From Candidatus Moraniibacteriota bacterium (GTDB lineage Bacteria; Patescibacteriota; Minisyncoccia; Moranbacterales; DUUL01): 64,000 bases of DNA. Location: NCBI GenBank assembly GCA_041596615.1, contig JBFHIG010000002.1, positions 3,162-67,161 on the forward strand, given 5' to 3'. Shown piece after piece: positions 1,253 to 49,689 of this stretch. How positions within the stretch are numbered: the stretch's first letter is position 1; each line of letters begins with the position of its first letter. Both the position numbers and the translations under genes were made by a program. Below the pieces are notes generated by a model, which saw only the letters and a list, made by a program, of their open reading frames with translations, had not been told where the DNA came from and searched no databases.

Positions 1253-2101
1253 ATGACTTCCTTCTGGTCCAGCCTTCCACAAAAAATAAATCCTGTCGCT
1301 TTTGAAATTGGCAATTTCAATATTCTTTGGTATTCAATTTCTTATCTTTTTGCATTTCTAACTGTCTATTTTTTTCTTAAACTACGGGTTCAAAAAAAGC
1401 ACTCCCTTGCAAAAGAAATTTTTCAAAACAAAGAGCCCTTTCTGATTTTTGAGAACCTCTTTCTTTATTCAATCATTGGGTTGATTTTAGGTGCTAAAAT
1501 AGGATTTATTCTTTTTTATGATTTTTCAAACTTTATTTCGAGCCCTTTGCAATCAATAAATCCTTTTCATGAAGGATCTTTCGTCGGTTTCTCTGGACTA
1601 TCTTTCCACGGCGCTGTTATCGGAATTGTGTTGATAGGCATTTGGTTTTGCAAAAAACATTCTTTGAAATTTTTCAGTGTTGCCAACTTCGTCATCTTAG
1701 CTGTTCCTTTGGGTTATTTTTGGGGAAGAATTGGAAATTTTTTAAACGGCGAACTTTATGGGAGATTCACAAAAAGCTCCATTGGGATGTGCTTTCCAAG
1801 GGCTGGGGATTGTAACCTTGGGATGAGACATCCCTCTCAACTATATGAAGCTATTGGAGAAGGGTTGATTTTATTTACAATTCTTTGGACTTTTAACAAA
1901 ACAAAAATTGGGCCTAGGATTATGTTTCCTCTTTGGTTGATTTTTTATGGAATAATTAGATTTGTAATCGAGTTCTTTAGAGAGCCTGATTTACAAATAG
2001 GATTCACTGCTTTGGGCTTGACAATTGGCCAACTATTGTGCTTTTGTATGATAATAACAGGGGCTGTTATTATCTTTCTTATTCTCCGTTTTAAAAAATA
2101 G
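1253..2101 (+). CDS. lgt: Prolipoprotein diacylglyceryl transferase
   Basis: 282-aa polytopic membrane ORF with the Lgt signature region GRIGNFLNGELYGR and HPSQLYEA. Confidence 0.9.
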   Translation: MTSFWSSLPQKINPVAFEIGNFNILWYSISYLFAFLTVYFFLKLRVQKKHSLAKEIFQNKEPFLIFENLFLYSIIGLILGAKIGFILFYDFSNFISSPLQSINPFHEGSFVGFSGLSFHGAVIGIVLIGIWFCKKHSLKFFSVANFVILAVPLGYFWGRIGNFLNGELYGRFTKSSIGMCFPRAGDCNLGMRHPSQLYEAIGEGLILFTILWTFNKTKIGPRIMFPLWLIFYGIIRFVIEFFREPDLQIGFTALGLTIGQLLCFCMIITGAVIIFLILRFKK

Positions 2102-2127
2102 ATTTTAAATTTTACAATTCTTTTCTA

Positions 2128-3249
2128 ATGAAAATTCTAGCTATCGAAACATCTTGTGATGAAACAGCTGTTGCAGTGCTACTTTGCAATGAGGAAACAA
2201 ATCGGATTGACTTACTTTCCAATGTTGTTTCCTCTCAAATCAAACTTCATTCAAAATGGGGAGGAGTTGTTCCAAATCTAGCTGCACGAGAACACCTAAA
2301 GAATATTACTCCTGTTACCAAAGAGGCGCTTGAAAAAAGTGATAGCAATCTAGCTGATATTAATCTGATAGCTGTTACAAAAGGTCCTGGGCTGATTCCA
2401 GCGCTACTGATTGGAACAAATGCCGCCAAAGCGCTGTCTTATGCTAAGTCGATACCGCTTCTTGGAATTCATCATGTTGAAGGACATCTTTATGCTCATA
2501 CAATTGATGGTAACTCAAAAGAAATCTATTTTCCTTTGCTAGCACTCACGGTTTCTGGTGGACACACGCAGATTGTTTTAATGAAAAATCAATTACAATA
2601 CGAAATAATTGGACAAACCCAAGATGATGCCGTTGGTGAGGCTTTTGATAAGGTCGCGAAAATGCTGGAACTTGGATATCCTGGCGGGCCAATTGTTTCT
2701 AAATATGCCAAAAATTTTGAACTAGAAAAAGAAAAAATTTCTAATAAAAAATTAAAAATGAAACTTGAATCAATTGAATTCCCCCGTCCCATGCTTGCGA
2801 GTGGTGATTTTAATTTCTCTTTTTCAGGCTTAAAAACGTCTGTATCTTACTTCTTCCAAAACATTCAAAAAATGAATTTGGATAGCGAAACTTTGGAGTT
2901 ATATAAAATGGCAATCTGTAAATCATTTCAAGATGCTGCAGTCGATGTTTTAGTAAAAAAAATGAGCAGAGCCACAAAAGAATTGTCACCAAAAACTGTT
3001 ATTTTAGCTGGGGGTGTCTCGGCAAACTTATTTTTACAAGAAACTCTCGAAAAGGAAATGCAAGCAAATTTCCCCGATGTTAAGTTTCTAAAACCAGCAT
3101 TGGAGTTTTGCGGTGACAATGCCGCCATGATTGGTGCTGCTGCTTTTGTGAGATACCAAAAACTAAAAAAGCTTGGGCAACTAGACCAACTCGAAACAGA
3201 ATGGAAAAACCTAGAAGCAGATTCAAATTTTAAGCTTGATAATCTCTAG
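2128..3249 (+). CDS. tsaD: tRNA N6-adenosine threonylcarbamoyltransferase
   Basis: The N-terminus MKILAIETSCDETAVAV, the HHVEGHLYA metal-binding motif and the GVSAN/GDNAAMIG C-terminal motifs are typical of the Kae1/TsaD family. Confidence 0.92.
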   Translation: MKILAIETSCDETAVAVLLCNEETNRIDLLSNVVSSQIKLHSKWGGVVPNLAAREHLKNITPVTKEALEKSDSNLADINLIAVTKGPGLIPALLIGTNAAKALSYAKSIPLLGIHHVEGHLYAHTIDGNSKEIYFPLLALTVSGGHTQIVLMKNQLQYEIIGQTQDDAVGEAFDKVAKMLELGYPGGPIVSKYAKNFELEKEKISNKKLKMKLESIEFPRPMLASGDFNFSFSGLKTSVSYFFQNIQKMNLDSETLELYKMAICKSFQDAAVDVLVKKMSRATKELSPKTVILAGGVSANLFLQETLEKEMQANFPDVKFLKPALEFCGDNAAMIGAAAFVRYQKLKKLGQLDQLETEWKNLEADSNFKLDNL

Positions 3250-3331
3250 TTTGTGTGCGATAGTATTATGTTGAGATTTATTTTCGTAAATAGCAATTTT
3301 CAGTAGTTTAAAAATCAAGGGAGGAAATCCT

Positions 3332-3802
3332 ATGTCAAAAAATTTGAGTGCTCCATTTCTGGAAAAATTTTTTCCTGTAATCGGAAAAGTATTATACTCA
3401 ATAGCCCTACTTTTAACTTTTGTATTTCTGTTATTTGATGCTAACCAAAAAAATAACTACGAAAAAGTGAAGCTCAATTATTCAATGGAGCTTGGTGACT
3501 TCATATTAAATATAAATGAGAAGATGAGCTTAACGGCAGAGGAAAATCTTGCCAGAATGCTTTCTTTAAAAAATGTGCTTCAGGCCGTTGACAATGAAGC
3601 ACTTTTGGAGGATGGTCTCATTTTGTCCCGAGACATTCTTTTGATGTCAGGATCTCCTGGGAATTACCGCATAAAAATACTCCTAAATAATTTTACAAGC
3701 AAGACAAGTAGGGATATAAGAAATAGATACATCAATGCCTTGAAAAAATTTTACAAGGCATATGATTTACAGATCTCTTCAATAGCTGGTGTTGCTGGCT
3801 AA
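3332..3802 (+). CDS. Hypothetical membrane-anchored protein
   Basis: 156-aa ORF preceded by a strong SD (AAGGGAGGAAATCCTATG). It has one N-terminal TM helix (VLYSIALLLTFVFLLF) and is followed by a perfect terminator hairpin. I recognised no family. Confidence 0.55.
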   Translation: MSKNLSAPFLEKFFPVIGKVLYSIALLLTFVFLLFDANQKNNYEKVKLNYSMELGDFILNINEKMSLTAEENLARMLSLKNVLQAVDNEALLEDGLILSRDILLMSGSPGNYRIKILLNNFTSKTSRDIRNRYINALKKFYKAYDLQISSIAGVAG

Positions 3803-3828
3803 AAAGATCTCAAACCACAAACTGTGGA

Positions 3829-3870
3829 AATAAGTCGAGTTCGAAAATTTTCGAACTCGACTTATTTTTT
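3829..3870. terminator. Bidirectional rho-independent terminator
   Basis: A perfect ~19-bp palindrome (ATAAGTCGAGTTCGAAAA/TTTTCGAACTCGACTTAT) is flanked by A and T runs. It lies between the convergent ORFs 3332-3802 (+) and 3873-6356 (-). Confidence 0.85.
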
Positions 3871-3872
3871 AT

Positions 3873-6356
3873 TTATTTTGATAACTGTCTTAAATCTTTC
3901 AGGCCAGCTCTTTTTCTAATTTCTGCCTCTACAATTTCTCGATCGCGTCCATATTTATATCTAGACAACTCTTTCAAAGCATCCCGCATATCCTTATTTC
4001 CCTCTGTTGGTGGATATGTTTTCATATCGAAAGAAGCTGAAGTTTTATTATTCATCAATAACTTCGCAAAGCATTGATAATTTGCCACATTAATCAAGTC
4101 ACTAGCATCAAATTCGGGAGTAAATTGTTTTTCGAGAAATTCTGCATCCTCTGAACCAACACGAAATGCACAAATAGAACCAACGTTACCAAAAACTGCC
4201 TTGGAAATATTATCCGAAAGTTGACCAATAAATTGATGCGCAATAATAAGCGCAAGTCTATATTTTCTTGCCTCTGCTAAAATTTGAGAAATTGAGTCTG
4301 TGGTAAAATTCTGAAACTCATCTATATATAGATAGAAATCCTTTCGATCTTTTTCATCAATATCAACTCGCGAAAGCGCTGCCATTAAAAGCTTTCCCAC
4401 AATAATCATCCCAAGCAAATGGCTGTTAATTTCTCCGATCTTTCCTTTTGAAAGGTTTACCAAAAGAATCTTTTGTTTATCCATAATATCCCTAAAATCA
4501 AAAGTGCTCTTTTGTTGTGAGATAATAGGACGCATAATGTCATTTGAAATAAATGTTGTTAATTTCGAAGTGATATATGGTGCGATGTTTTCCAATGCAG
4601 CATCTCCTCCGGCTTTTTCAGCTTCTTTTTCCCAAAAATCAACAACTGTTGAATCCTGACAACGCCTCAACTTTTCTTTTCTAAATTCAAGATCTCGAAA
4701 TACTCTTGGAACTTCCATTAAAGTCGATCCAATATCAGGACTATCCATAACCAACAACATAGCATTACGCATATATTGCTCAAACATCGGGCCTCCGGTC
4801 GATTTCAAATCATAGAGTTTATCAAAAATTGCCAAAGTCTCATTGATAACAAAAGTTTTTTGTTCTGGATGTTTTTGATCATACTCCATAATATTTAAAG
4901 AAAATGGTCTTTCCATGTCCGAGGGATCAAAATAAATTACATCATCAGCCCTTTCCTTAGGGATATTTTCCAAAATATGATCAATCAAGTCGCCATGTGG
5001 ATCAATCACGCACATTCCAGATTTTTCAGCATCCTGCTTTGCCATCTCTTCTATAAAAGTTGACTTACCAGTTCCAGTTTGTCCTACAATATATAAATGT
5101 CTTCTTCGATCATCTTCAGACAATCTTATTTCTGTTTTCGAACCCCTGAATTGACTGAAGCCAATATCCAGACCTTCTTTTGGGATGTCTACCGGCGGAT
5201 TAGATGTTTTAGATTTTAGCCAATTTATTTTTGGAGTCTCTGTGGTGGAAATTGGAAAATGAAAAATACTTGCCAGTTCCTCTGTATCTAAAATCATTCT
5301 GTGCTTATCGGAAAAATTTCTAAAAATATAATCATACGCAATTTTATGTGCGTTTTTAGCTTTGTTTCTAATGGCAATAAATTTGTTCAAGCTTGCATCC
5401 TCAAACTGAACAAAAGCATTTTCTAGTGATGCTAATATCATTTCTGCTCTCTCCTTGGTTGCAGCAGATGCAACCAAACGCACGTTGGCTTCGAAATGTG
5501 CATTTTTCACCTTAGCTTCCAATCTTGATATCACTTCTTGTTCTTCTGGTGTCAATGAAATCGGTGTCTTGCTGTCTCTTTGTTCTTGAACAGTTCTGCC
5601 AGTAAGAGCCCCTGATAATTCCGAACCAAGCCCTCTAGCTAAATGACCAGCATTAGAACTTGAAGCTTCACCTAGTCTTTTTCCTTGTTGCATTTGTTGA
5701 GCAGTTCTTATTCCCTGCTCTTTCCATTTCTTACTACTGCGACGTATAATAATTTGGATTGCTGCTCCCTCCTTTTCATCTTCAAGCTTTGATAAAGCAT
5801 TTGCAATGTTCTGTAAAGGATCTGATTCAAGATGTTTATATGTTCTGATCGGAAAAGAGTCCTCTTTTTTAAGCCTTAAACGACTTGCAACAGTAACACC
5901 ATCTGGCCTAAATATTGTATACTCAGAAGCACTTTCGATGTGAGCTGAAGGATAGAAACTGTGGATTTGCTTCTCAATCACCTCTTTGAAGCGGGCAGGC
6001 ATAGCTACGTAGAATACGATGCTTTCACTGTCAGAAGAAACTGCAATTTCAAGAGCAATGTGAGGTTCCCCAAAAATAATTCTATGAAAAAAATCCTTGT
6101 GTTGTGGCAAATCTGAAAGAGAAGATAGGAGTTGTTCCATTTTAGAAATTTCTTCCTTTTCTGCCGCTCCCTTAGTTTCTGGAGATTGTCCACTTTGAGA
6201 TTTAGGCTTTACAACTCTAATAACATCAAGTGTTTGATTTAGAGATTGAGTTAAATTTGCTCTGAATTTAAGATATCTTTGAAGCAATAACCATGCGCCA
6301 GAAGCAAGCATTATAAACCCAGTAAAGAATGAAAGCCCAAAAAACAAACTTTGCAT
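3873..6356 (-). CDS. Membrane-anchored P-loop NTPase of the VirD4/TraG/TraD-like (FtsK-HerA superfamily) type
   Basis: 827-aa ORF with an N-terminal TM helix (FFGLSFFTGFIMLASGAWLLL). Walker A is IVGQTGTGKST, Walker B is FYLYIDEFQNF, and a downstream LALIIAHQFIGQL segment follows. The size and layout resemble type IV coupling or AAA-like conjugative ATPases. This family call is from motif memory only. Confidence 0.65.
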   Translation of the reverse strand: MQSLFFGLSFFTGFIMLASGAWLLLQRYLKFRANLTQSLNQTLDVIRVVKPKSQSGQSPETKGAAEKEEISKMEQLLSSLSDLPQHKDFFHRIIFGEPHIALEIAVSSDSESIVFYVAMPARFKEVIEKQIHSFYPSAHIESASEYTIFRPDGVTVASRLRLKKEDSFPIRTYKHLESDPLQNIANALSKLEDEKEGAAIQIIIRRSSKKWKEQGIRTAQQMQQGKRLGEASSSNAGHLARGLGSELSGALTGRTVQEQRDSKTPISLTPEEQEVISRLEAKVKNAHFEANVRLVASAATKERAEMILASLENAFVQFEDASLNKFIAIRNKAKNAHKIAYDYIFRNFSDKHRMILDTEELASIFHFPISTTETPKINWLKSKTSNPPVDIPKEGLDIGFSQFRGSKTEIRLSEDDRRRHLYIVGQTGTGKSTFIEEMAKQDAEKSGMCVIDPHGDLIDHILENIPKERADDVIYFDPSDMERPFSLNIMEYDQKHPEQKTFVINETLAIFDKLYDLKSTGGPMFEQYMRNAMLLVMDSPDIGSTLMEVPRVFRDLEFRKEKLRRCQDSTVVDFWEKEAEKAGGDAALENIAPYITSKLTTFISNDIMRPIISQQKSTFDFRDIMDKQKILLVNLSKGKIGEINSHLLGMIIVGKLLMAALSRVDIDEKDRKDFYLYIDEFQNFTTDSISQILAEARKYRLALIIAHQFIGQLSDNISKAVFGNVGSICAFRVGSEDAEFLEKQFTPEFDASDLINVANYQCFAKLLMNNKTSASFDMKTYPPTEGNKDMRDALKELSRYKYGRDREIVEAEIRKRAGLKDLRQLSK

Positions 6357-6411
6357 TATTTTTTATTTTAAAAATTTATTTCTATTTTATTACCCACACT
6401 CAACCAGAGAG

Positions 6412-6912
6412 CTATTTGATTTCTTCCAACAGTCCTTTGCCAATCAAAGCTTCTCGGACCTTGGTCTCGACTAATTGGTCATGCACTCGATCTAAAATAT
6501 AGTTATTATCGATGTGTTTTGCTACTTTTATTGCAAAATAAGGATCCTTTTTGGAAGCTAGGTCAACAATTTTTGCGATTTGATCTTCTGGGTTTTGCAA
6601 CGAAGAAACATCTTTGGCATGAAATTTTACATGCTCCCTCCGCTTATCTGCGTCACTTCCTTTCGAATCACCATCGTCATCTTTTTGCACGGTCTTTACT
6701 GGCGATGGTGTTTTTGCTATTTGTTCTTTGGCTTGTTCCATCACTGCCTCACTCCTATGTACCATCTCCTGATTCCTCTTAATAAGCTCTTCCAATTCAT
6801 TCTCCCCATGACTCCCTTTATCTTCAGCTTTCTGGGCATTCTTTAGCTTTTCCGCAAATTCCTCTGAATCATTTTTAATTTCTTGTTCAATGTTCGTTTC
6901 CTGTTCTGGCAT
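6412..6912 (-). CDS. Hypothetical acidic protein
   Basis: 166-aa ORF, highly charged (E/K/D-rich) with no TM helix. It is co-directional with its flanking genes, with 42-55-nt gaps. Confidence 0.5.
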   Translation of the reverse strand: MPEQETNIEQEIKNDSEEFAEKLKNAQKAEDKGSHGENELEELIKRNQEMVHRSEAVMEQAKEQIAKTPSPVKTVQKDDDGDSKGSDADKRREHVKFHAKDVSSLQNPEDQIAKIVDLASKKDPYFAIKVAKHIDNNYILDRVHDQLVETKVREALIGKGLLEEIK

Positions 6913-6954
6913 TTTTTTACCTTACTTATTTATATTCTTCATTATTTTCAAGCT

Positions 6955-7338
6955 CTATTCTTCCTCGGTTACATCAACAATTTGATCAGTTTTAGATCCT
7001 GTTTTGGTTTCTTCTTTTCCGGCACTATCCATAAATTCTTTCATCTCCGTTTTGTATTTTCCTATCTCATCTAAAATAAGCTCCTCGATTCCAGGAAGAT
7101 TCTCTTGCAAAAATGCATCGACTGCTTCACCCTTCTCATCATCCGAGTTTATTACATCAGCAAATTCGACTTTTTTATCTTCGGGAAGCTCAGTAACAAT
7201 TCTCAGAACAATTCGCTGTTGAATTATTTCTCCCATTTGAATTAATGTTTCCTCTCTTTGTTCTTCTGGAAGCTCATTAATCCCAAGCTCCTTTATTAAG
7301 TCGATTTGCGCAGCTTTTATATTTTCTTTTAAAGACAT
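6955..7338 (-). CDS. Small acidic helical protein (resembles the CPR-restricted DUF5663-like family, from memory)
   Basis: 127-aa ORF. The pattern LGINELPEEQREETLIQMGEIIQQRIVLRIVTELPEDKKVEF matches what I recall of small CPR helical proteins. It starts 11 nt after the stop of the giant ORF. Confidence 0.5.
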   Translation of the reverse strand: MSLKENIKAAQIDLIKELGINELPEEQREETLIQMGEIIQQRIVLRIVTELPEDKKVEFADVINSDDEKGEAVDAFLQENLPGIEELILDEIGKYKTEMKEFMDSAGKEETKTGSKTDQIVDVTEEE

Positions 7339-7349
7339 ACTATTTAAAA

Positions 7350-10300
7350 TTATTTATTATATTGCTCAAGATATTTAACTAGTTTAGCTAATTCCTCAAG
7401 CTGTTCTTTTGTTATTGTGTTTCCTTTTGCTACATATTGAGAAATGCTCTCACCGATACTATGGTCCTTGAATCCTATTTCCGTATCAATCTTTAGAGCA
7501 ATATCAACAGCCTTAGCATGTTCTATATAAAAATCGATTTCATCCCCATCGCCAGATTCAGCTGCTTCTTTAGCCAAAACAACATTTTTTACCTCAGCCA
7601 AAAGGTCATTGCCTTTTGTTTCGGTAAGAAGTTTTTCGTCCTCTGCCGAGAGTTGACTCATAAGTTCCTTAATATCTGCTTTTTCAGCAACTTTTTCCAG
7701 TTGCTCTCCTTCTGTTTCTGCTGTTTTTTTCACTTCAGTTTCATCTTTTGCGCTTTCTAATTCTTCTTCTATAATTGCATTTTCTTGTTCATCCTTTAAC
7801 TTTTCTTGTTGAAGACGACTTATGTGCTTACTTTTCTCGGGTGATATAACAGTTTTTTCAACATCTTTTGGAGTTGAGATTTTCTCTTCTGAAAACTGTT
7901 CTTCTCCTTCCCGAATAAATTGTTCATCTCCTTCATCAAGAATAATGGCTTTTGGTTGCAATAGATCGTTCCCAGAAAGTATACCGTTTTCTACTGTCCT
8001 CGTGTTGTCACCCTTTTCAATAGACCTTTCAAATTCTTGAAAAGATTCTGGCCTCACTTTTTCTGAAGCATAATCTCCTCTCAAAGCATTTTCCAGCCTA
8101 ATTTCTCCTGGAGTGTTTATCATGTCCTTATCGATTTCATCAAAAGCAATCTTTGCCATTATTGCCATTCTTTCAACTTCTCTAATATCAACAAAGTCTA
8201 GTTCAGCTTTCGATTCCAGTGATAAGTTCAGCGCATTACTCCTCCAAGCATCAATTGCTTCAGCTTTTGTTTTTGGAAAATTATCTAACTCTTTTAGCGT
8301 CATTTTACTAATAGCTCTCCAGGCCTCATCTTTTTCATTAATCTTCAGTTCTTTTAATTTCTCGCTAAGCTCATCTGCTGTCAGGATTTTAAATTCACTA
8401 TCAGCATTATCTAAAAAAGATTCTTTTATCATTTCATCAGAAGCACCTGATTGTCTCTTGGTTACCACTCCCTCTTGCTCTTCTGTTGGCAAAGATTCGT
8501 GTGCTACTTCTCCAACTTTTTCAGAATCATTTATTACACTCGCGCCTCCATCAGTTTCAGCAATTTGATTCGCCTGCAACTCTGCCTTAGCTCTTTCAAG
8601 ATAACTTTGTTCCAACGGTTTGACTCTCTCTTTCCACAAAGCCTCTGCCTTTTCTTTGGAAATTATTTTCGCATGCTCATTAACAAATTTATCATGTGCT
8701 GCTTGAAATTCCTGATATGCCTTGGTTTTGGCTAAATCTCCTTCTCTAAAAGCGCTCGGGGTTGTTTCAAGTCTGGCTTGCTCAAGATATTTAGGCCTTT
8801 CATCTTCTATGAGCTTAAGCCAAGCTGCTTCATTCTCATGAGATTTTCCCCCATGTTCTTCAATAAATTTATCATGTGCTTCAACACTAAATTTCCTTTG
8901 ATATTCTTCAAAAGCCTTGGTTCCGGCAAATCCCGTTTTTCCCAATTCATCGTTGGTTGCTTCAAAATCTCTGCCACCAATAGCTATATTGTTTACTTTT
9001 TCTGTTGTGACTCCTAACTTATCGGTACTTTCGACTGTCGCTGCACTAGCTTCACCAGCATGATTTTCTGTTGTTATTTTTCCCGAATCTATAGAGGTAA
9101 GAGAGCTAAGGTCAAAATACATATCGAGCATTTTTATTCCCCCTCCTGCAACAAAGCCAGTAATTCCAGCGGCGGCCATAGCTTTTATATTATCATTCCT
9201 TTCGAGATTCATTTTCTTTTGTATCATCGAAACCATATCCATCTTCCCTTCCTCAAAATATTTATTTACAGTTTTTTTCTCAATCTTTTCCCCTCTCTTC
9301 TCTCTTGTTGATTCACCCCAAACAGAGACATCTCTGAATGCCATACGACTAAACTTGCCACCTATAAAAAACCTGACTGTTCTCATTGTTAAGCTTGAAG
9401 CGCCAGCTCCCATGGCCGTACCAACAGCAGCTCCCCCAGCCAAGGCGATACTTCCACTAAGAACACCTGCCAATGCTATGCCACCTGCAACTTTCCATTT
9501 CTTTGGAATTTTCTGATACCCTTCAAAAAGTTTTTCAGCAATTCCCTTATCACGTTCATTTAGAATTTCTTTTCTCGCCTGATTCAACTCTAACATTTTA
9601 TTATTAAGGTCCTGCATCAAACTTATTTTCTCTATCTTTTTCTCTCCAGCTTCATTGGTTTTTTCTAAATCAATAATTTTTTCTGAAAATATATACTCTC
9701 GCATCGATTTAATTTTTTCCTCACCCTCTACTTTACTGTGTTCCAATGCATTTTTTCTACTTTGCGCTCTTGTTTCAATAAAATCAGCATGCGCGTCCTT
9801 AAAAGCTTTTTCGGCTTCTTGCATCGCATCTTTTGCATTCTGCAGCTCCTTCATTGCTTCTGCATCCTCACCAAAAGCAATTCCCATTTTTGCAAGATTT
9901 CTTTTGACAATCGTTAGTTTATTTCCTTTTTGTTCAAAGTTTATTTGCGCATTTTTCCATGCCTCAAATTTACTATTCATTTCTACTTGAGTTCCCTTTT
10001 CTGACTTTTTTTCACTTTCATCTTCTGGGCTTTTCCCTTCGCTCTCATTTCTTCCAACAATTTCATCAAAATTCAATGGCGCACTTTCAGACTCAACAGC
10101 TTTTTCCTCTTCCGATTTTGAAACATTAACACTCTCTCCTCTTATTTCAAGTTCTTTTCTGTATTTACGTATGCTAGCCTCCACTTCCTGGAACTGATCT
10201 TTTTTCTCAGTATTGGTTTTATCTTTGTCTAGCAATAAACCATTTCTAATCTCATTTAGTTGAGAAAGTTCATCTTGCAACACAGCAGTGTCTACATCAG

Positions 10301-23127: not shown

Positions 23128-24144
23128 TCAGCAACCATAACAAACGTCCCAGTGAGTGCTTTCTCTAGCATAAATATTACCACTACTATCAACATACATT
23201 GGCGCTCCATCTGAACGAACACCTGTATAGGTATAATTATCAATGATATATGTATTAACTGCTGCAGTATCTTCTATGTCAACCTTATACCCATTTGCGT
23301 GAGAAAATACTCCCGTAGCATGCGGCCCTCCTTCTGCAGCACCTGTAACTATAATGGGCACCCCCACTTCACTTTGAAAGCCAATCACGCCACTAGTACT
23401 TGCTGGTCTTAATCCTTCTACCAAAGTGGCTCCTGGACTAGACTCCCAAACCGAAATATCATATGCTGCTAAGTTATCTCTAGCCGATTGCTCTGCTGCA
23501 GTTATAACACCTGCACCTGCACCTGCACCTGCGCCTGCGCCTGCACCTGCTCCTGCTCCTGCTCCTGCGCCTGCTCCTGCACCTGTAGCGGCACTAGGAG
23601 GTGCTGTATCGAAAACACTGTCAGTAATACAATTAAATTCATACCAGTGCCCGCCAGACCTAATTCCAAGATTACTTTCATCTGCGGATAAAAAAACCAA
23701 GACAGTATACACTAGCAGCCATGCGAGTAGAAAACCAGCAAAACCCATCAATGTTTTTGTGATAATTCCTTTTGCAAAAGCAGCTGTACCAGGATTTCCC
23801 ACTGAAAGAAGATATACAACTCCTCCGATAGTAAGAGATAAAATTGCAAGAATAATTATCCAAGCAAACATTAAATCAAAGATATTCTTTACCATAATAA
23901 GCATGTGGCAAAGGGTGCAGCTACTTTCTTCATCGTAAGGGGTCCTACTGTCATCACAGCTTCTTCCACAAGGCACAATAGCTCTTTCAAATTCCAAAAT
24001 GCTTATGCCAGACACCCCTTCTGAAGACTGAGAACAATTAGCTGCTTGAGCTGGATAAGGAAGTCCTAAGAAATAGACCCCCATTAAAAGAGAAGTCACT
24101 CCCAAGAGAAAAAAATTTCTGACATTTTTAATTTTTGTTTTCAT
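23128..24144 (-). CDS. Secreted/membrane fusion protein: VirB2/TrbC-like pilin module + (Gly-Ala)12 linker + M15/LAS-type zinc peptidase-like C-terminal domain
   Basis: It has a signal peptide (MKTKIKNV...PYPAQA) and a Cys-rich motif (VPCGRSCDD...CTLCH). Two hydrophobic helices follow (FAWIIILAILSLTIGGVVYLL; FAGFLLAWLLVYTVLVFL), then (GA)12. The C-terminal ~125 aa carry IVTGAAEGG...FSHANGYKVDI (H-x6-D) and ARESTHWD (ExxH). Confidence 0.6.
   Translation of the reverse strand: MKTKIKNVRNFFLLGVTSLLMGVYFLGLPYPAQAANCSQSSEGVSGISILEFERAIVPCGRSCDDSRTPYDEESSCTLCHMLIMVKNIFDLMFAWIIILAILSLTIGGVVYLLSVGNPGTAAFAKGIITKTLMGFAGFLLAWLLVYTVLVFLSADESNLGIRSGGHWYEFNCITDSVFDTAPPSAATGAGAGAGAGAGAGAGAGAGAGAGAGVITAAEQSARDNLAAYDISVWESSPGATLVEGLRPASTSGVIGFQSEVGVPIIVTGAAEGGPHATGVFSHANGYKVDIEDTAAVNTYIIDNYTYTGVRSDGAPMYVDSSGNIYARESTHWDVCYGC
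23510..23587. repeat. Imperfect hexanucleotide microsatellite (CCTGCN)x12-13 encoding (Gly-Ala)12 on the minus strand
   Basis: Direct reading gives cct gca / cct gcg / cct gct units in 12 copies plus cct gta. This is a G+C-rich tract in an AT-rich genome. Confidence 0.95.
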
Positions 24145-34874: not shown

Positions 34875-35633
34875 TCACTCTTTCCCCATTTTCCACAGTA
34901 CTTCAAAAAAGTTTCGATAACCTTGAGCAATTTTTTCATTTTTAAAATTAAATACCGTAATCGGGTCACCCATTAAATAAAAATCTATTGATGTTTCAAA
35001 TACACAAATTCCGCTATAACTTTGATAATCTGGCAAAAAACGATAATTAGTTTTTTCTCGGCTATTTTTAGATCTTAAAGCCACTTCCCGCAAGCCTTCG
35101 TTCAAAACAAAACGAATGGAGATATTTTTACGCCTCCGAGTTTTTTCATATCTTTCTAAAAAATCCATTCTTTTTTTAGTGAAAAGCTCTCCCCAATCAG
35201 TAGAAATAATCAGAATCTCACTACTATCTTTCATATCTTCCAATATTTCAAATTGATGCTGAATATAGGCATCCTCTCCCTGATAGGTCTCAAACTCTTG
35301 TTTTGGAGTTTTTTTGACAAGAGTTTTTAATATATCAACAGTCTTTTCAGCTACCAAACGCTTTTCTTCGATGAGATTGGTGATTCTAGCTGGTGAATTA
35401 GCTTCAAATTTTTTTCTGCCATTAATTATACTATGTTTAACTAAGCCCTTTTTTTCTAAAGAATACAGCGCATCATAGACAAATTGACCGTGCAAACCTG
35501 TAGTTCTCACTATTTTAGAGCTTCCCACCGGAATTGATTTGGCTAAAAGATCAATATAAACTCGAGACTCTTTCTCTGAGAGCCCAAGCAATTGCAAATT
35601 ATCTATTAAATTTTTATCAATATTTTTTGACAT
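34875..35633 (-). CDS. TrmB-family (winged-helix) transcriptional regulator
   Basis: The N-terminus LQLLGLSEKESRVYIDLLAKSIPVGSSKIVRTTGLHGQFVYDALYSLEKKGLV is the TrmB-type wHTH pattern. It is divergent from the 35.8-36.8 kb cassette. Confidence 0.7.
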   Translation of the reverse strand: MSKNIDKNLIDNLQLLGLSEKESRVYIDLLAKSIPVGSSKIVRTTGLHGQFVYDALYSLEKKGLVKHSIINGRKKFEANSPARITNLIEEKRLVAEKTVDILKTLVKKTPKQEFETYQGEDAYIQHQFEILEDMKDSSEILIISTDWGELFTKKRMDFLERYEKTRRRKNISIRFVLNEGLREVALRSKNSREKTNYRFLPDYQSYSGICVFETSIDFYLMGDPITVFNFKNEKIAQGYRNFFEVLWKMGKE

Positions 35634-35694
35634 ACCTACATTATATCTCAGTATTTAAGCCAAGTCAATATCAAAATTTCATCATCATTATTTA

Positions 35695-35723
35695 TTGACA
35701 AATTTAGATTTATATGCTATTCT
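35695..35723 (+). promoter_or_regulatory. Near-consensus sigma70 promoter with extended -10
   Basis: TTGACA (35695-35700), a 17-nt spacer ending in TGC, then TATTCT (35718-35723). Confidence 0.55.
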
Positions 35724-35816
35724 ACTATATTGTTAAGCTAAATTCATATCTTAACAAAAAGATCATTGACAACTAAAACGGCACTTCCGCCGCACCAATA
35801 TCACAAGGAGAAAATC

Positions 35817-36113
35817 ATGCCAAATAATACTAATGCAATAAAGGCTATTCTTATGCAATGGAATGTCGTGGTATTAATTAACGGCAAGTATGGACTTGCT
35901 CTTGATTATCTTTATACCAGTGGATGGTCTCCTATCTGCCGTTGCGGTTGCTGGGAATATCCAGCAAAAAAATTAGAATCCGTAGAAGAAGAATATGGCA
36001 TAACAATATTATTTGAAGATAGCGAGAGGATTGAAGAATGTGGATTCAAGGTAGAAAGGCCGTATTCCAATGAGGAAATTAAAAGTTTGTTGCTATCCTC
36101 AAAATCTAATTAG
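35817..36113 (+). CDS. Hypothetical 98-aa protein with a CRCGC motif
   Basis: I place the start at ATG 35817 because AAGGAGA lies 6 nt upstream. The ORF-track start at 35766 is a TTG that overlaps a TTGACA. The gene is G+C-richer than its surroundings, and I recognised no family. Confidence 0.55.
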   Translation: MPNNTNAIKAILMQWNVVVLINGKYGLALDYLYTSGWSPICRCGCWEYPAKKLESVEEEYGITILFEDSERIEECGFKVERPYSNEEIKSLLLSSKSN

Positions 36114-36157
36114 CTCAGGGGGCATTTCCGCCATATACAAACTACAAGGAGAACATC

Positions 36158-36754
36158 ATGAGAATTCTCGTAATTGACGACACCCAGAAACATTTAGATT
36201 CAGCCCTCCAGACCCTTGGTGAGCATGAAGTTGTTACCTGTTCAACCTACGATGAAGCAGAGAATCTAGTCGACATTTACAGCAAGGAGAAGTGGGATGC
36301 AGTTTTATGTGACTTACTTATGCCTGCAGGCAGTCGTGCGCAAGGAGGGCCAGGTACGAAATTTGTAGGTCAAGAAATGCCTGTCGGCTGGGCGCTTGCA
36401 CTTATGGCAGTAAGAAGCAACGTCCGCTTTATAGCGGTCGTAACAGACATGAATCACCATCATCATCCTGCCAGTGCGATGTTAGATCACACCAACGACC
36501 ATATTTTCAAGGTTGATGAGTCTAGGGTTTTGATGACAAACAGCACTGGCCGTGTAGGGATTAAAGGAACTGAACGCTGTTGCGTATGGTGCTGTGATGA
36601 AGGAACAAAGAGGCGTGAAGATATGAGTTCCGATGTTTGTACTTATTGCTACGGAGAGAGTCCCCTCTACCGTGAATATGGAAAAGATTGGGGGAATATC
36701 TTAGAAAAACTCACCAGCAGTAGCAATAACAAAAAGGGAAACCCTATCCTGTAA
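36158..36754 (+). CDS. REC (CheY)-like domain protein with an atypical insertion, a His4 run and a C-terminal double CxxC zinc-ribbon-like tail
   Basis: AAGGAGA SD. MRILVIDD and WDAVLCDLLMPAG resemble the receiver acidic pocket and phospho-acceptor strand. The insert is SRAQGGPGTKFVGQE, and NHHHHP follows. The tail is CCVWCC...CTYC. Confidence 0.6.
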   Translation: MRILVIDDTQKHLDSALQTLGEHEVVTCSTYDEAENLVDIYSKEKWDAVLCDLLMPAGSRAQGGPGTKFVGQEMPVGWALALMAVRSNVRFIAVVTDMNHHHHPASAMLDHTNDHIFKVDESRVLMTNSTGRVGIKGTERCCVWCCDEGTKRREDMSSDVCTYCYGESPLYREYGKDWGNILEKLTSSSNNKKGNPIL

Positions 36755-36792
36755 ATATAGAAAAGATTGGAGGATAATATTAGAAAGATTCA

Positions 36793-36835
36793 CCAGCCAG
36801 TGACTTATTAAAGTTGCTGGCTGTTTTTATTTTTG
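36793..36835 (+). terminator. Rho-independent terminator of the cassette
   Basis: CCAGCCAG...CTGGCTG stem with an inner ACTT/AAGT helix, followed by TTTTTATTTTT. Confidence 0.75.
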
Positions 36836-37099
36836 CCCAGTTACTTCCAATGTTTTATGCCCGTATTTATATTTTTTTGCCGTCTTAAAAAGTAAAATTT
36901 TTTGTTTTAATATTTTTGAAAACTTTTTTAGAAATATTTTTTGCAAATAATTTCCTGTTAAATTTGATCCGCTATTTTTACTTTCTTTGTTAAAGGTGTA
37001 TATAAAAGACCATCCATCTTTTAAAAGATTGTCAAAAATTATACTGCTAAACTGTTCTTTGCTTTCTATCTTATGAATCACATAGCTTGAAAAAACCAC
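36827..37099 (-). CDS. Hypothetical 90-aa protein (weak call)
   Basis: GTG start, K/F/S-rich and AT-rich, lying 38 nt downstream of the preceding minus-strand ORF. There are no supporting motifs. Confidence 0.3.
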   Translation of the reverse strand: MVFSSYVIHKIESKEQFSSIIFDNLLKDGWSFIYTFNKESKNSGSNLTGNYLQKIFLKKFSKILKQKILLFKTAKKYKYGHKTLEVTGQK

Positions 37100-43510: not shown

Positions 43511-46500
43511 TTATTCTGCTTGGCTCTCAGAATCTTCATTCAATCTTCGCCCTACTTGTTTAACTTTTTCAACATACTCAATTTCCGTAATTACATGTGC
43601 TACTTCATCAAGCGTAGTCTCTCCTCTTAGAATATGCAATATCCCATCCTGTCCCATTGTCAACATTCCTTCTTCAATAGCCTTTTCTCGAATCTCAATT
43701 GTAATGGGGTTTGTTGTTAAAAATTTCTGCATTACTCTATCGATCTCCAGTACTTCTGTAATTGCAACTCTTCCTTTAAATCCAAGGTTGTGACACTTCT
43801 CACAACCAACTGGCTCAAAAACCTTGTCCACTTTTTTAGGGATATCAATTTTTACTTTAGGGGATATACTATTCAGAACCTCTTCTATAATTTCCTCCTC
43901 TTCAACCTTCACAGCTCTTTCTCTTTTACAATGAGGACAAAGCGTCCTAACAAGTCTTTGTGCCACAAAACAATTAGTTCCGGAAGAAAGGTCTGACATG
44001 GAGACGCCCATATTCAACAATCTTTGCACCGAACCAGCAGCACTATTAGTATGCAATGTTGTTAAAATCAAATGACCTGTTAAAGCGACTTTATAAGCGG
44101 CGTTAGCACTTTCAGAATCTCTTATTTCTCCCACCATTATGATATCGGGATCCTGTCTTAAAATAACCCTCATTGCGCTCGAAAAAGTATAGCCATCATC
44201 TTCTTTTACCTGTGTCTGCAAGACTCCTTCCATTTGATATTCAATTGGATCCTCTATTGTTATAACCTTAAGTTTTGGATCTTTGAGATAATTCAAAAGA
44301 CTATACAAAGTGGTTGTTTTACCACTGCCAGTTGGTCCTGTATCCATGATAATCCCGTTTGGCTTTGCAACATTTCTAAGTATCTTCTCGAGGTTATAAG
44401 GATTCATGTTTAGTTCAGCTAGTTCTGTAACCTGAACACTTTGACTTAAAAGTCTCATAACGATAACATCTCCAAAACCACCCAATATTACCGAGACTCT
44501 AACATCTATTGATTCCTCCCCCGACTCCCTTTCCTTGTTTGAATAAACAATTTTAAACCTTCCATCTATAACTCCCTCTCTCTTTCCCGTTTTCACTCCC
44601 ATCAAATTTTTAATCTCATTTAAAACAGTAAGATAATCATTCATTGAAAGAAGTGCAACGTCATGCAAAACTCCGTCAATTCGATATCTGATTTTAAATT
44701 TTTTCAATCCAGGCTCTATATGAATATCACCAGTGCCTGTATATACAGCTCCAATTAAAACATATCGCACCAATTCCTTTGGAGGAAGAACAGAAAATAA
44801 TTCTTCGAATTCTTCATAGTCATTTTTCACTTTGGCCATTTTTTCTAAAACGTCGTCTTTGATAAAAATTCCACGCGCCAAAGATTGAACAACTATTTTC
44901 TCATACAAATCAATCAAATATTCTCCCTTTCCAACCACACGTTGCAATTCTTCGATTGAAGTTGTTCCAGTAACTGATTTTAAAATTCCGTCCTGTTCCA
45001 GAGTAATCATTCCATTCTCTAATGCTGCGCTCCTAATTTCATCCTCCGGAGCCATTTTTTCAATAGCAGTTTTGATTTCTTCTGTAATAACAAGAATTTC
45101 AAAAATTCCAACCCTCCCTTTATAACCAAGCCCGTGACATTTGGCGCAACCTCTTGGCTTCCAAAGCCTATCAATACGTTTGGGGATTGAAATGTCTGCC
45201 TTAGGAGAAATAAGTGCGAGCATTTTTTTTATCATATCGATAGTTTCACTTGCTGGTACATATTCTTCTTTACAGTGTGGGCATAGACGCCTCAAAAGAC
45301 GCTGAGCAACAAAAGCATTTACTGCAGGCGCGATTAAGTTAGGCTTAACTCCAAGGTCAACAAATCTTCCGATTACACCACTAGCACTGTTTGCATGTGT
45401 CGTTGAAAGCACTAGATGCCCTGTTAAAGAAGCGTGTATAGCAATTTCAGCAGTAGATTCATCTCTAATTTCTCCAACTAAAATAATGTCTGGATCTTGA
45501 CGCATAATTGCTCTTAATCCATTTTCAAAAGTATACCCTTTCGAATCCTCAACTTGTGTTTGACTCACACCAGGAACTTGATACTCAATCGGATTTTCAA
45601 TACTGATAATTTTTTTATCAACAGAATTCAAGCGATTGATTAAAGAATAAAGAGTTGTGGTCTTTCCACTCCCTGTTGGTCCGGAATTGATAATCGCTCC
45701 TTGCTTCTTCTCTGATTCTTTAATAAGCCATTCATAATTTAGCCCCTCCAATCCCATTTTACTTAGAGATAGATCCTCAATATTCTGACTGAGCAAACGA
45801 ACCACAATGTTTTCACCAAAATTCCCTGGCAAAATTGAAACTCGGAGATCCATCGCTGACTGACCTTCTCTTTCAACAGAAAAACGACCATCTTGGGCAA
45901 TATCACGCACATTTATCATCATTTTTCCAAGTACCTTTACTCTTGAGACGATAGTCGGATATATATGGATTGGAAAAGATGCTACCGTTTGAAGAACGCC
46001 ATCGATACGAAACCTCAAACGAACTTTACCTGTTTGTTGAGGTTCAAAATGAATATCTGAAGATTGCAACTTAATTGCTCCAGCAAGAATCATATTTAGC
46101 ACTTTAGTCACCGGGAGATCTCTGATTCTTTTATCCATATCCAAAACACCCTTCGTTTCATCCTCAAAATTAGCCAGTTCTTCGCCTGTTAAGCCAGCTC
46201 TCAATGTGTCAAGAATCACACTTAGATTTTCTTTTCCATACTCCATCCAAGCTCTTTCGATTGAAGACTGGGACACCACGAAAAGCTCAACCCTCATCCC
46301 GTCATCCTCTAAATCAGCAATAAAATCTCTAACTTTTCCATCTTCAGGATTTGTTGCTACTAGCTTAATTGATCTTTCTAGTTTATGGATAACCGCAATT
46401 CCTAAACTTTTCGCCTTTTCCTTCTCAATAAATTTAACATTCTCTTGGTCAATTGGGAAAATATTCAAATCCAAATAAGCCAAGTGTAAATCCTTTGCAA

Positions 46501-46813
46501 GCTTAGAAGCCTCCTCTTCTTCAGAATCTCTTCTTAGATGTGTTAATGTTTTTTGAATTCCACCCCTTCTGGCGAAAGTAACTGCTTCTTTATCTCTCTT
46601 GTTTTGTTCAATTCTCCTAAGCCTCTCTTTTTCATTTTCCAAATCTCGCTCCTCCTTTCTTCTTTCACGATCCTCTAGATAGCGCTCTTCTCTTTCCTCC
46701 GAAGTCTCTTCATCTTCATACACAACCCTTTCTACGTCTTTTTCAGCATCCTGAGAAGCGACTTGTGCATCTCCATCCACGCTGTCTTTTTTTTGTTTTT
46801 CTTCTTCGGTCAT
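43511..46813 (-). CDS. Tandem (duplicated) GspE/PilB-family secretion ATPase: acidic N-terminus + T2SSE_N-like domain + two complete ATPase modules
   Basis: Two Walker A sites (SGPTGSGKTTTLYSL at aa ~377; TGPTGSGKTTTLYSL at aa ~825). Two Asp/His-box regions (RQDPDIILVGEIRD...LTGHLVLSTTHAN; RQDPDIIMVGEIRD...LTGHLILTTLHTN). Two tetracysteine motifs (CPHCK...CAKCHGLGYKGR; CPHCK...CEKCHNLGFKGR). Confidence 0.85.
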   Translation of the reverse strand: MTEEEKQKKDSVDGDAQVASQDAEKDVERVVYEDEETSEEREERYLEDRERRKEERDLENEKERLRRIEQNKRDKEAVTFARRGGIQKTLTHLRRDSEEEEASKLAKDLHLAYLDLNIFPIDQENVKFIEKEKAKSLGIAVIHKLERSIKLVATNPEDGKVRDFIADLEDDGMRVELFVVSQSSIERAWMEYGKENLSVILDTLRAGLTGEELANFEDETKGVLDMDKRIRDLPVTKVLNMILAGAIKLQSSDIHFEPQQTGKVRLRFRIDGVLQTVASFPIHIYPTIVSRVKVLGKMMINVRDIAQDGRFSVEREGQSAMDLRVSILPGNFGENIVVRLLSQNIEDLSLSKMGLEGLNYEWLIKESEKKQGAIINSGPTGSGKTTTLYSLINRLNSVDKKIISIENPIEYQVPGVSQTQVEDSKGYTFENGLRAIMRQDPDIILVGEIRDESTAEIAIHASLTGHLVLSTTHANSASGVIGRFVDLGVKPNLIAPAVNAFVAQRLLRRLCPHCKEEYVPASETIDMIKKMLALISPKADISIPKRIDRLWKPRGCAKCHGLGYKGRVGIFEILVITEEIKTAIEKMAPEDEIRSAALENGMITLEQDGILKSVTGTTSIEELQRVVGKGEYLIDLYEKIVVQSLARGIFIKDDVLEKMAKVKNDYEEFEELFSVLPPKELVRYVLIGAVYTGTGDIHIEPGLKKFKIRYRIDGVLHDVALLSMNDYLTVLNEIKNLMGVKTGKREGVIDGRFKIVYSNKERESGEESIDVRVSVILGGFGDVIVMRLLSQSVQVTELAELNMNPYNLEKILRNVAKPNGIIMDTGPTGSGKTTTLYSLLNYLKDPKLKVITIEDPIEYQMEGVLQTQVKEDDGYTFSSAMRVILRQDPDIIMVGEIRDSESANAAYKVALTGHLILTTLHTNSAAGSVQRLLNMGVSMSDLSSGTNCFVAQRLVRTLCPHCKRERAVKVEEEEIIEEVLNSISPKVKIDIPKKVDKVFEPVGCEKCHNLGFKGRVAITEVLEIDRVMQKFLTTNPITIEIREKAIEEGMLTMGQDGILHILRGETTLDEVAHVITEIEYVEKVKQVGRRLNEDSESQAE

Positions 46814-48911: not shown

Positions 48912-48940
48912 TTGACAAATTGATTAAAATATGCTATATT
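48912..48940 (+). promoter_or_regulatory. Near-consensus sigma70 promoter with extended -10
   Basis: TTGACA (48912-48917), a 17-nt spacer ending in TGC, then TATATT (48935-48940). Confidence 0.55.
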
Positions 48941-49017
48941 GGAAAACATATCAGTACCTATCATTTTTGTTGTGTAAATCAAAATTCAACCTTGTCCGAG
49001 GACAAAGGGGGTGTGTT

Positions 49018-49689
49018 ATGGGAAAATCAGCGATTGACTGTTTGAGAGCAAACTTCATCAGGGGTGGAAGTAAAAAAAACGCCCTAGTCCTTATTAGGGC
49101 CTTGGAAGAAGAGCTCCAACAAACAAATGAAAAATTGGAAGGGGCCGAAGCTTATATAATTCAACTAGAGGAAGATAATCGTTTTCTCCGAAGGCAAGTT
49201 ATCATTGACAGCTTAACTGGGATTCATAATAGAAGATTTTTTAATGAAGAGTTCCCTAAAGAAGTTTTGAGGGCTAAGCGTCGAAAAGAAGCGGTGTCAA
49301 TTATAATGATCGACATTGATAATTTTAAAAGATTCAATGACACCTATGGACATCCCAAGGGAGACGAAGTTTTGCAACTAGTTGCACTGGCCCTGGAAAA
49401 TGTCTTACAGCGTCCGACTGACTCTCTTTCAAGATATGGCGGAGAAGAGCTCGTCTTTATTCTTCCGAATACTGATCTGGCTGGTGCTCAGTACATTGCT
49501 GAGAAAGCTCGCCAATCAGTGGAATCTCTTAATATTCCACATTCTGCTAACGATGCTAATGTTGTAACTATCAGTTTGGGTGCTGCAACTATACACCTCA
49601 ACGAGTCAGCCCATCATCTGCTCGCAAGAGCTGATAAATGTTTATACAAAGCAAAAACATGCGGAAGAAATCGCGTTTATTGCGATTAA
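49018..49689 (+). CDS. Diguanylate cyclase (GGDEF domain) with a short N-terminal coiled-coil
   Basis: I place the start at ATG 49018 because the SD AAGGGGG lies 6-7 nt upstream. The active-site region is RYGGEELVFILP. An RxxD I-site (RPTD) sits 5 residues upstream. DIDNFKRFNDTYGHPKGDEVL is also present. Confidence 0.85.
   Translation: MGKSAIDCLRANFIRGGSKKNALVLIRALEEELQQTNEKLEGAEAYIIQLEEDNRFLRRQVIIDSLTGIHNRRFFNEEFPKEVLRAKRRKEAVSIIMIDIDNFKRFNDTYGHPKGDEVLQLVALALENVLQRPTDSLSRYGGEELVFILPNTDLAGAQYIAEKARQSVESLNIPHSANDANVVTISLGAATIHLNESAHHLLARADKCLYKAKTCGRNRVYCD

Follow-up and report, generated by a model that had tools for sequence, protein, structure and literature searches.

The window analysed here is a stretch of 64,000 nucleotides (nt) from a Candidatus Moraniibacteriota genome (assembly GCA_041596615.1, contig JBFHIG010000002.1, positions 3,162 to 67,161). 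Between about 15.6 and 48.8 kb its genes run on the minus strand, and this run is broken by two plus-strand open reading frames (ORFs), ORF1 and ORF2, which form a small cassette divergent from a gene for a TrmB-family regulator. A preliminary description, made from the letters alone, had pointed to the two plus-strand ORFs, an extended -10 promoter, an AAGGAGA Shine-Dalgarno (SD) sequence before both genes, a strong terminator, the divergent TrmB-like gene and the protein motifs MRILVIDD, DAVLCDLLMP, NHHHHP, CCVWCC...CTYC and CRCGC, and our analysis recovered every one of these. The cassette occupies an expression slot which consists of the TrmB-family gene, a strong divergent sigma-70-type promoter, a leader, one or more cargo genes and a terminator, and ORF2 belongs to a family derived from the receiver (REC) domain, the members of which are called REC-like below. 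The features of the locus are as follows.

34875..35633, minus strand: gene for the TrmB-family winged-helix regulator, 252 amino acids (aa), divergent from the cassette (Pfam PF01978, 1.7e-10).
35640..35668, minus strand: TrmB promoter, TTGACT-17-TATAAT, 11/12 matches.
35695..35723, plus strand: cassette promoter, TTGACA-17-TGcTATTCT with extended -10, 10/12 matches plus TG.
35730..35757, plus strand: leader hairpin or palindrome P1, TTGTTAAG-N12-CTTAACAA, at the predicted 5' end of the transcript.
35759..35773, plus strand: leader box 2, AAGATCATTGACAAC; family consensus AG[AT]TCnTTnAnA.
35780..35819, plus strand: leader repeat copy 1, with a small GGC/GCC hairpin, the SD and the ATG of ORF1; ORF1-type allele, like that of locus L083.
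35817..36113, plus strand: ORF1, 98-aa CRCGC protein, a lineage-specific, fast-evolving cargo gene.
36121..36160, plus strand: leader repeat copy 2, with hairpin, SD and the ATG of ORF2; REC-type allele, like that of locus L009.
36158..36754, plus strand: ORF2, 198 aa, REC-derived, with D7, D8, D52, T96, D97, H100-H103, K176 and a zinc knuckle.
36326..36385, plus strand: family-specific insertion of ORF2 between strand 3 and helix 3, residues 57-76, which holds GGPGT...E; Q62, G71 and E73 are conserved.
36455..36466, plus strand: His run H100-H103 of ORF2, the HHxH motif of the family, in the loop after strand 4.
36578..36649, plus strand: degenerate zinc knuckle of ORF2 of the DnaJ/anti-TRAP type, CCxxCC...CxxC, before helix 5.
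36663..36797, plus strand: 56-bp imperfect direct repeat (36663-36718 and 36742-36797), by which the 3' end of ORF2 is duplicated past the stop codon.
36794..36833, plus strand: intrinsic terminator of the slot, a 13-bp stem (36794-36823) followed by a T-run.
36827..37099, minus strand: 3' remnant of a methyltransferase gene, a 90-aa ORF, at the right-hand rearrangement border.

The product of the TrmB gene matched PF01978 with 41 bits (cut-off 25.6) and has the N-terminal TrmB winged helix-turn-helix. The NCBIfam model TrmBL1 was matched at 9.9e-9 over positions 3-160 of 341, far under its cut-off, and the C-terminal sugar-binding domain of archaeal TrmB was not found, Pfam giving only noise past residue 81. 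The -10 element of the TrmB promoter stops 6 nt ahead of the ATG at 35633, and the TrmB mRNA is therefore probably leaderless. On the other side, the SD sequences of the cassette (35805-35811 and 36146-36152) stand 5-6 nt from their respective ATGs. A TrmB gene was located divergently upstream of the REC-like gene in all seven genomic contexts obtained by exact protein look-up and in 27 of 43 species-representative loci from GTDB, with two further loci having it immediately downstream, which supports the earlier proposal of an independently regulated module tied to the divergent regulator. Save for antisense shadow ORFs and an Xer-type recombinase gene (7 loci), no neighbour other than TrmB was recurrent. 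TrmB paralogues are often arrayed, and other paralogues front other cargo behind the same promoter and leader.

Locus L025 carries five TrmB paralogues on one strand within 8.6 kb (1840-8529), mostly facing different small genes, which encode a lipoprotein-like protein of 119 aa, a REC-like protein of 211 aa and proteins of no assigned family of 133 aa and 187 aa. Seven of 49 loci (for example L001 1274-2194, L017 1593-2528, L030 1169-2080, L004, L029 and L050) have a gene for an Xer-type tyrosine recombinase no more than 4 kb away from the TrmB/REC-like pair; in L017 and L030 this gene adjoins TrmB directly, at the TrmB 3' end. In L041, from Kerfeldbacteria, a small ORF intervening between TrmB and the REC-like gene (3605-3900, plus strand) resembles a receiver N-terminus (MNIKHVLVLEDDKDL...AILDYSI).

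A promoter of the type TTGACA-17-TATACT points away from the TrmB gene in many loci. The transcribed leader that follows it (35724-35816 in the window) is conserved downstream of TrmB-divergent promoters, ahead of REC-like and other cargo alike, and was found too in L004, L006, L007, L008, L012, L020, L031, L044, L052 and others, in the order 5' hairpin, GATGA, box 2, small hairpin and SD. The arms of P1 co-vary between loci, with G.U pairs and differing loop lengths, and the folding of 35 leaders gave a mean z of -0.80 (p=8e-4). The box 2 motif was matched 22 times in 387 kb of locus sequence, and 11 of these matches were inside TrmB-divergent leader zones, which make up 2.7% of the sequence space. 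A known RNA family was rejected as the identity of the leader, as 12 loci yielded no Rfam match at gathering score and the window nothing above noise. A covariance model, seeded with the three closest genomes, recovered only these sources, all other loci having E above 1; MAFFT misregisters the hairpin arms of the broader set. The leader may act as a cis-regulatory RNA, serve as a TrmB operator, or do both.

Comparison of the window with two related loci revealed three cargo states in the same slot. L009 is closely related to the window, with 90% of nucleotides identical across TrmB and the intergenic region and 82% across the REC-like gene, and it carries the REC-like gene only. L083, whose TrmB is 94% identical to that of the window at the amino-acid level, carries an ORF1-like gene only, and the window carries both. 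All three have the TrmB gene, the promoter, the leader and the terminator in common, the same terminator standing behind the ORF1-like gene in L083 and the REC-like gene in L009. In the window, the last 40 nt of the leader are present in two copies (35780-35819 and 36121-36160) flanking a 341-bp segment, copy 1 being the L083 allele and copy 2 the L009 allele. In the window pair, two unrelated cargo units stand in tandem, and a separate copy of leader and SD precedes each. Related genomes thus have one or the other of the two genes alone in this slot, and ORF1 and ORF2 do not represent a co-evolved pair. An independent assembly (L010) was 100% identical to the window over 4753 bp, thus the tandem arrangement is not an assembly artefact.

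ORF1 has the narrower distribution of the two. No match was obtained in Pfam, PHROG, NCBIfam or PADLOC, in agreement with the earlier statement that it has no recognisable family, and among 5.8 billion proteins its only relative was the L083 protein (41% identity, E 2e-16), in which W-P-C-x-C-G-C-x-Y-P is kept. It is missing from L009, and between the window and L083 its synonymous sites are saturated (proportion of synonymous differences, pS, 0.91). Homology to the other intervening small ORFs was not found, nor was a source elsewhere in the window or the loci, and a single-sequence structure model was uninformative (pLDDT 39.7). ORF1 is a real, fast-evolving gene of extremely narrow distribution.

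The region is rearranged relative to the related loci. L083 has an intact methyltransferase gene (154-217 aa), whose 3' half is 78.6% identical at the nucleotide level to the remnant at 36827-37099, the radical-SAM gene beside this methyltransferase gene in L083 is absent from the window, and a 357-aa neighbour gene lies on the opposite side of TrmB in L083 compared with the window. The regulator itself has diverged far less than its surroundings. Between the window and L083, synonymous divergence (dS) was 0.44 for TrmB, against 2.7 for MurA, 3.5 for DnaJ, 2.6 for PRA-PH, 1.5 for NUDIX and 1.4 for the 357-aa gene, values above about 1 being saturated such that only the contrast between genes is meaningful; between L009 and L083 it was 0.12 for TrmB and 0.81 for the 357-aa gene. 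In every pairing of window, L009 and L083, identity over the 183-bp intergenic region is about 89%, and between L012 (2986-4010) and L020 TrmB with the intergenic region is 86.8% identical while the flanks are 64-66% identical. Overall, TrmB and the intergenic region (34875-35816 in the window) compare with neighbouring housekeeping genes as dS 0.12-0.44 with 0.8-3.5, and as 87-90% with 64-81% nucleotide identity. This low divergence suggests that the regulator-promoter-leader unit is exchanged among lineages or homogenised across them. The unit is either strongly constrained or exchanged between lineages, and the cargo is variable.

Tandem cargo arrays are also present at L020 3846-6296 and L012 4735-7433, where a 75-nt copy of the 3' part of the leader, from box 2 onwards, stands before every unit and a hairpin-containing repeat of 57-71 nt (CCTTTCAGAAATTTCTT...AAGAAGTTTGTGAAAGG) behind it. 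At the end of ORF2 in the window, the duplicated 56 bp are 80% identical, and the window protein gains a C-terminal tail, SSSNNKKGNPIL, which is unique to it in comparison with L009.

The REC-like nature of ORF2, proposed in the preliminary description, was supported by sequence and model alike. Pfam Response_reg gave 26.3 bits against a cut-off of 30.2, aligning residues 3-57 with profile positions 1-54 of 111, so that ORF2 falls below the gathering threshold for the full PF00072 domain, and similar sub-threshold matches were found for 75 of 107 family members. Alignment of the family with a REC alignment using hhalign gave a probability of 98.8%, ended at DLLMP and paired D52 of ORF2 with D57 of CheY, the D-L-L-M-P context being conserved. 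An AlphaFold2 model built on the alignment (pLDDT 92.4, pTM 0.86) displayed the receiver-like beta-alpha order of a (beta-alpha)5 flavodoxin-like fold (beta1-alpha1...alpha5), together with two insertions, one behind strand 3 and a beta-rich/zinc one ahead of the last helix. Most of its top 50 Foldseek matches in PDB were receiver domains, although the matches were weak (E ~1.6e-3; TM 0.39 by query and 0.59 by target). LOG, SLOG and TIR domains, of which the first two had been suggested as an alternative, were rejected: none was present among these 50 structures, and the GGPGT motif is specific to the window protein. Its GGPGT-x5-E element exists as described in ORF2 itself, but across the family the consensus is QGxxGxxYVGQE, without a conserved GxGT, and only G, G and E73 are kept.

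Among 107 family sequences, D7, D52, M55, P56, H100, H103, P104, K176 and W178 are invariant, and D8, E73, D97, H101, T127 and N128 are conserved in at least 90%; the acidic pair and the acceptor Asp of receivers are thus retained. In a set of 81 diverse cluster representatives, D8, D52, H100/H101/H103, D110 and K176 were conserved in at least 90% and W178 was again invariant. In the model, T96 follows strand 4 and is T or S in the alignment rows inspected, while K176 stands directly before the last helix, 48 inserted residues from the strand that ends at N128. An invariant G-K-D-W opens this helix, with the zinc knuckle inserted just before. The family consensus of the knuckle is CxxCxGxGK...CxxCxGxG, that is two CxxCxGxG units, and Anti-TRAP was matched by 56 and DnaJ_CXXCXGXG by 52 of the 107 members; the window protein keeps the Cys pairs with GxG replaced, and some members lack the knuckle. 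ORF2 is a receiver-derived protein, neither a canonical receiver nor a LOG/SLOG domain, and in its family the N-terminal half is a recognisable receiver and the C-terminal half is remodelled by the insertion behind strand 3, the invariant HHxH motif that follows the conserved T/S-D and the zinc knuckle.

The family is large. At E<=0.01 the searches yielded 216 homologues; their annotation reads hypothetical, "CheY-like" or "response regulator", and wherever a source is named it is Moranbacteria, Parcubacteria or Patescibacteria. Among 1.84 billion cluster representatives, a profile search retrieved 1146, 812 and 228 representatives of 50%-identity clusters at E<=1e-3, 1e-10 and 1e-30, respectively. 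To judge by these sequences, the family looks restricted to Patescibacteria, but since some GTDB records bear proteobacterial or other non-Patescibacteria names, this restriction is apparent rather than proven. NCBIfam, PHROGs and PADLOC gave nothing specific for ORF2, the PHROG matches covering only the N-terminal receiver half. A phage origin was rejected, as the family was absent from IMG/VR, which returned a generic receiver match only, and a defence-system reading of the cassette was rejected on the negative PADLOC result, bar one weak match to the receiver part.

The preliminary description had regarded both genes as G+C-rich, and this holds for ORF2 only. Among 50 window genes ORF2 has 45.6% G+C (z=+2.8) and the highest G+C at third codon positions (GC3; 43.7%, z=+3.3), and just 0.39% of 597-bp windows reach its G+C content, whereas ORF1, at 36.0% (z=+0.1), is at background. 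The excess is seen throughout the family and in many lineages: 53 of 56 gene copies (95%) are richer in G+C than their own locus, by a mean of 8.4 and up to 23 points, and GC3 of the REC-like genes is 12 points above background while the adjacent TrmB genes are host-like. In 43 paired loci, the shift amounted to +0.16 for NNC over NNT at two-fold sites (p 4e-7), +0.22 for G-ending Lys/Glu/Gln codons (p 3e-9) and +0.076 for four-fold GC3 (p 0.006). Between the window and L009, dS of ORF2 (0.56) is in line with that of the flanks (0.41 and 0.61), which speaks against recent transfer; the ratio of non-synonymous to synonymous divergence (omega) was 0.27 for ORF2 and 0.10-0.11 for the flanks. The excess is an intrinsic, codon-level property of the gene family and not a mark of recent import, and it fits selection for high expression or another gene-specific force.

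In 27 of 49 loci (L001 4947-5645, minus strand, and 26 others), the greater part of the REC-like gene is covered by a long antisense ORF. As a high GC3 removes antisense stop codons, these ORFs are most simply a by-product of it. The only other G+C peak in the window (23128-24144, minus strand; 46% over 600 bp) belongs to a 338-aa protein with a weak T4SS-pilin match, and its excess is at codon position 2 (0.50) instead of 3 and thus reflects amino-acid composition.

Taking the locus and the family together, the explanation that we favour overall, with moderate confidence, is a TrmB-controlled expression slot with swappable cargo, to which a REC-derived switch operating without a kinase has been fitted. 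TrmB would repress the slot promoter, and the REC-derived protein, when expressed, would work as a stand-alone, kinase-independent switch. The acidic pocket and the His triad of ORF2 may bind a phosphoryl group and/or a divalent transition metal, and the zinc knuckle with the remodelled C-terminal face would contact a partner protein; this could possibly be TrmB itself, in which case a closed feedback loop would result. ORF2 is probably a phospho- or metal-dependent switch that acts via protein contacts.

Several points weigh against this explanation. Phosphorylation, metal binding and contact with TrmB are each inferred, and K176 is a candidate counterpart of the receiver Lys. An Asp right after the conserved Thr and a long loop are atypical for a phosphorylatable receiver. 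A histidine kinase gene was not found in any of about 50 family neighbourhoods examined, and 16 of the 43 loci have no divergently adjacent TrmB gene. The distances of REC-like proteins and TrmBs are uncorrelated (rho 0.03), on which ground co-evolution of the two was rejected, and the TrmBs next to REC-like genes do not form a clade. Both findings favour TrmB as a generic local regulator of the slot, which is what it looks like, over a physical pair that co-evolves. The lack of a co-evolution signal, together with the other cargo in equivalent slots, likewise argues against a physical partnership with TrmB. Finally, the shift at four-fold sites leaves room for causes of the G+C excess other than translational selection.

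Of the other explanations, the one that survives best, though we hold it to be doubtful, is an integron-like cassette platform driven by recombination, in which cargo moves between TrmB modules at the leader elements (box 2 and the small hairpin) and at the terminator, and the REC-like protein, functionally unconnected with TrmB, is just the most frequent cargo. The three cargo states in one slot across related genomes speak for such a platform, as do the duplicated leader junctions of the window, the 75-nt and 57-71-nt repeats of L020 and L012, the low divergence of TrmB and the intergenic region relative to the flanks (dS 0.44 against 1.4-3.5 between window and L083; 86.8% against 64-66% between L012 and L020) and the missing co-evolution of TrmB and the REC-like protein. 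However, no dedicated integrase was found. None was adjacent, most loci have no tyrosine recombinase nearby, and the recombinases near 7 loci score as XerC/XerD/XerA; with the integron-integrase model they gave 96-133 bits against a cut-off of 265, mainly over the C-terminal catalytic region, and an integron integrase was therefore rejected in favour of Xer-type enzymes. Furthermore, ordinary tandem duplication could yield the junction repeats, the low dS of TrmB could mean constraint or gene conversion, and the lineages examined number only a handful. A bolder form of the same idea, which we put forward only tentatively, is that Patescibacteria possess an integrase-independent, integron-like socket, a unit of TrmB repressor gene, consensus promoter and structured leader that stays near-identical between genomes in which housekeeping genes have reached saturation at synonymous sites, and into which unrelated small genes are swapped or stacked by recombination at the leader and terminator elements, the commonest cargo being a receiver rebuilt around an Asp/His metal-phosphoryl site. 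If so, the receiver cargo of the socket would be a new kind of kinase-less signalling or enzymatic module.

It is unlikely, in our judgement, that ORF2 is an enzyme, namely a receiver scaffold turned by convergence into a metal-dependent phosphohydrolase or phosphoesterase with DHH-like or binuclear-metal chemistry. Its active site would be formed by D7, D8, D52, E73, D97, H100, H101, H103 and D110 at the C-terminal edge of the sheet. In the 81 diverse representatives, conservation of the His triad, D97 and D110 is as high as that of the acceptor Asp, the order of secondary structures in the model would place these residues in loops on the active-site face, and no kinase partner was seen in any context examined. 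On the other hand, none of the 107 members matched DHH, HD or another hydrolase family, by which such a family was rejected for ORF2, and the top 50 structural matches included no identifiable hydrolase. D-x-x-M-P with an invariant Lys is typical of phospho-accepting receivers, and the zinc knuckle suggests protein binding.

That the cassette is a recently acquired horizontal island with the G+C content of a foreign donor, as first envisaged, is very improbable: the top GC3 of ORF2 in the window, the rearranged region and the loose tie between family gene and host G+C are in its favour, but composition is atypical for ORF2 only, ORF1 being host-like, the L009 copy is G+C-rich as well, ORF2 has diverged from it as the flanks have, the excess recurs in nearly all family genes beside host-like TrmB genes and is most marked at two-fold sites, mobility genes were not detected and IMG/VR contains no member of the family, such that recent horizontal transfer was rejected as its cause.

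The remainder of the window has the appearance of an ordinary Patescibacteria chromosome, with Lgt, TsaD, Mur ligases, MreB, MurA, DnaJ, RuvB, PilB and UvrD. One of its few other plus-strand genes (48931-49689) encodes a stand-alone GGDEF diguanylate cyclase (1e-49), and a minus-strand gene (43511-46813) encodes a protein of 1100 aa with two T2SSE (PilB-like) ATPase stretches.

The known superfamilies involved are the receiver superfamily and the TrmB regulators, and ORF2 is most readily compared with the stand-alone receivers CheY, Spo0F, DivK and CpdR (PF00072). It shares with them the (beta-alpha)5-type fold, the DD after strand 1, the acceptor Asp in D-x-x-M-P after strand 3 and the lack of an output domain; a T or S behind strand 4 and an invariant Lys ahead of the last helix are candidate counterparts of the conserved receiver residues. 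It differs in scoring below the Pfam gathering threshold, over residues 3-57 only, in a C-terminal half that cannot be aligned profile to profile, in an insertion of about 20 residues after strand 3, in the invariant HHxH, the Asp after the Thr and the zinc knuckle before the Lys, and in having a TrmB regulator and no histidine kinase as its genomic partner. The CXXCXGXG motif of DnaJ and anti-TRAP mediates protein-protein contacts, and the two CxxCxGxG units of the ORF2 family resemble the cysteine-rich region of these proteins (PF00684, PF15777), which about half of the members match. In contrast to them, the family has a single knuckle of two units placed inside a receiver fold and dispensable in some members, and in the window protein it is degenerate (CCVWCCDEG...CTYCYGES).

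The regulator likewise shares the N-terminal winged helix (PF01978) and the local control of adjacent genes with archaeal TrmB and TrmBL1, but at 252 aa the window TrmB is without a detectable sugar-binding C-terminal domain, and in Patescibacteria the family has expanded into arrays. As an analogy only, the conserved regulator and promoter ahead of interchangeable genes, with repeated junctions between tandem units, recall integron cassettes and regulators of the BrxR/CapW type, which are found upstream of diverse defence systems; the slot differs in having neither an integron integrase nor an attC-type site, and no cargo was recognisable as a defence gene by PADLOC. A curated family, a solved structure or a paper on the ORF2 family or the TrmB slot was not found in the searchable literature and databases, and searches combining TrmB with Patescibacteria or Candidate Phyla Radiation, or a receiver domain with CXXCXGXG, returned nothing. 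As far as these searches reach, the REC-derived family and the swappable TrmB slot have not been described before.

Patescibacteria account for a substantial part of bacterial diversity; their genomes are tiny, and their signalling systems are generally taken to be few. The ORF2 family, with more than 800 clusters at 50% identity, is labelled "CheY-like" by annotation or missed altogether. Its size, conservation and receiver ancestry, the invariant His triad, the zinc knuckle, the lack of a nearby kinase and the link with TrmB make it a candidate for a lineage-specific signalling or enzymatic function. The gene-specific excess in GC3 makes composition alone a poor indicator of horizontal transfer in this setting. 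Lastly, the variable cargo in a conserved slot points to a simple route by which reduced genomes may exchange and express accessory genes.

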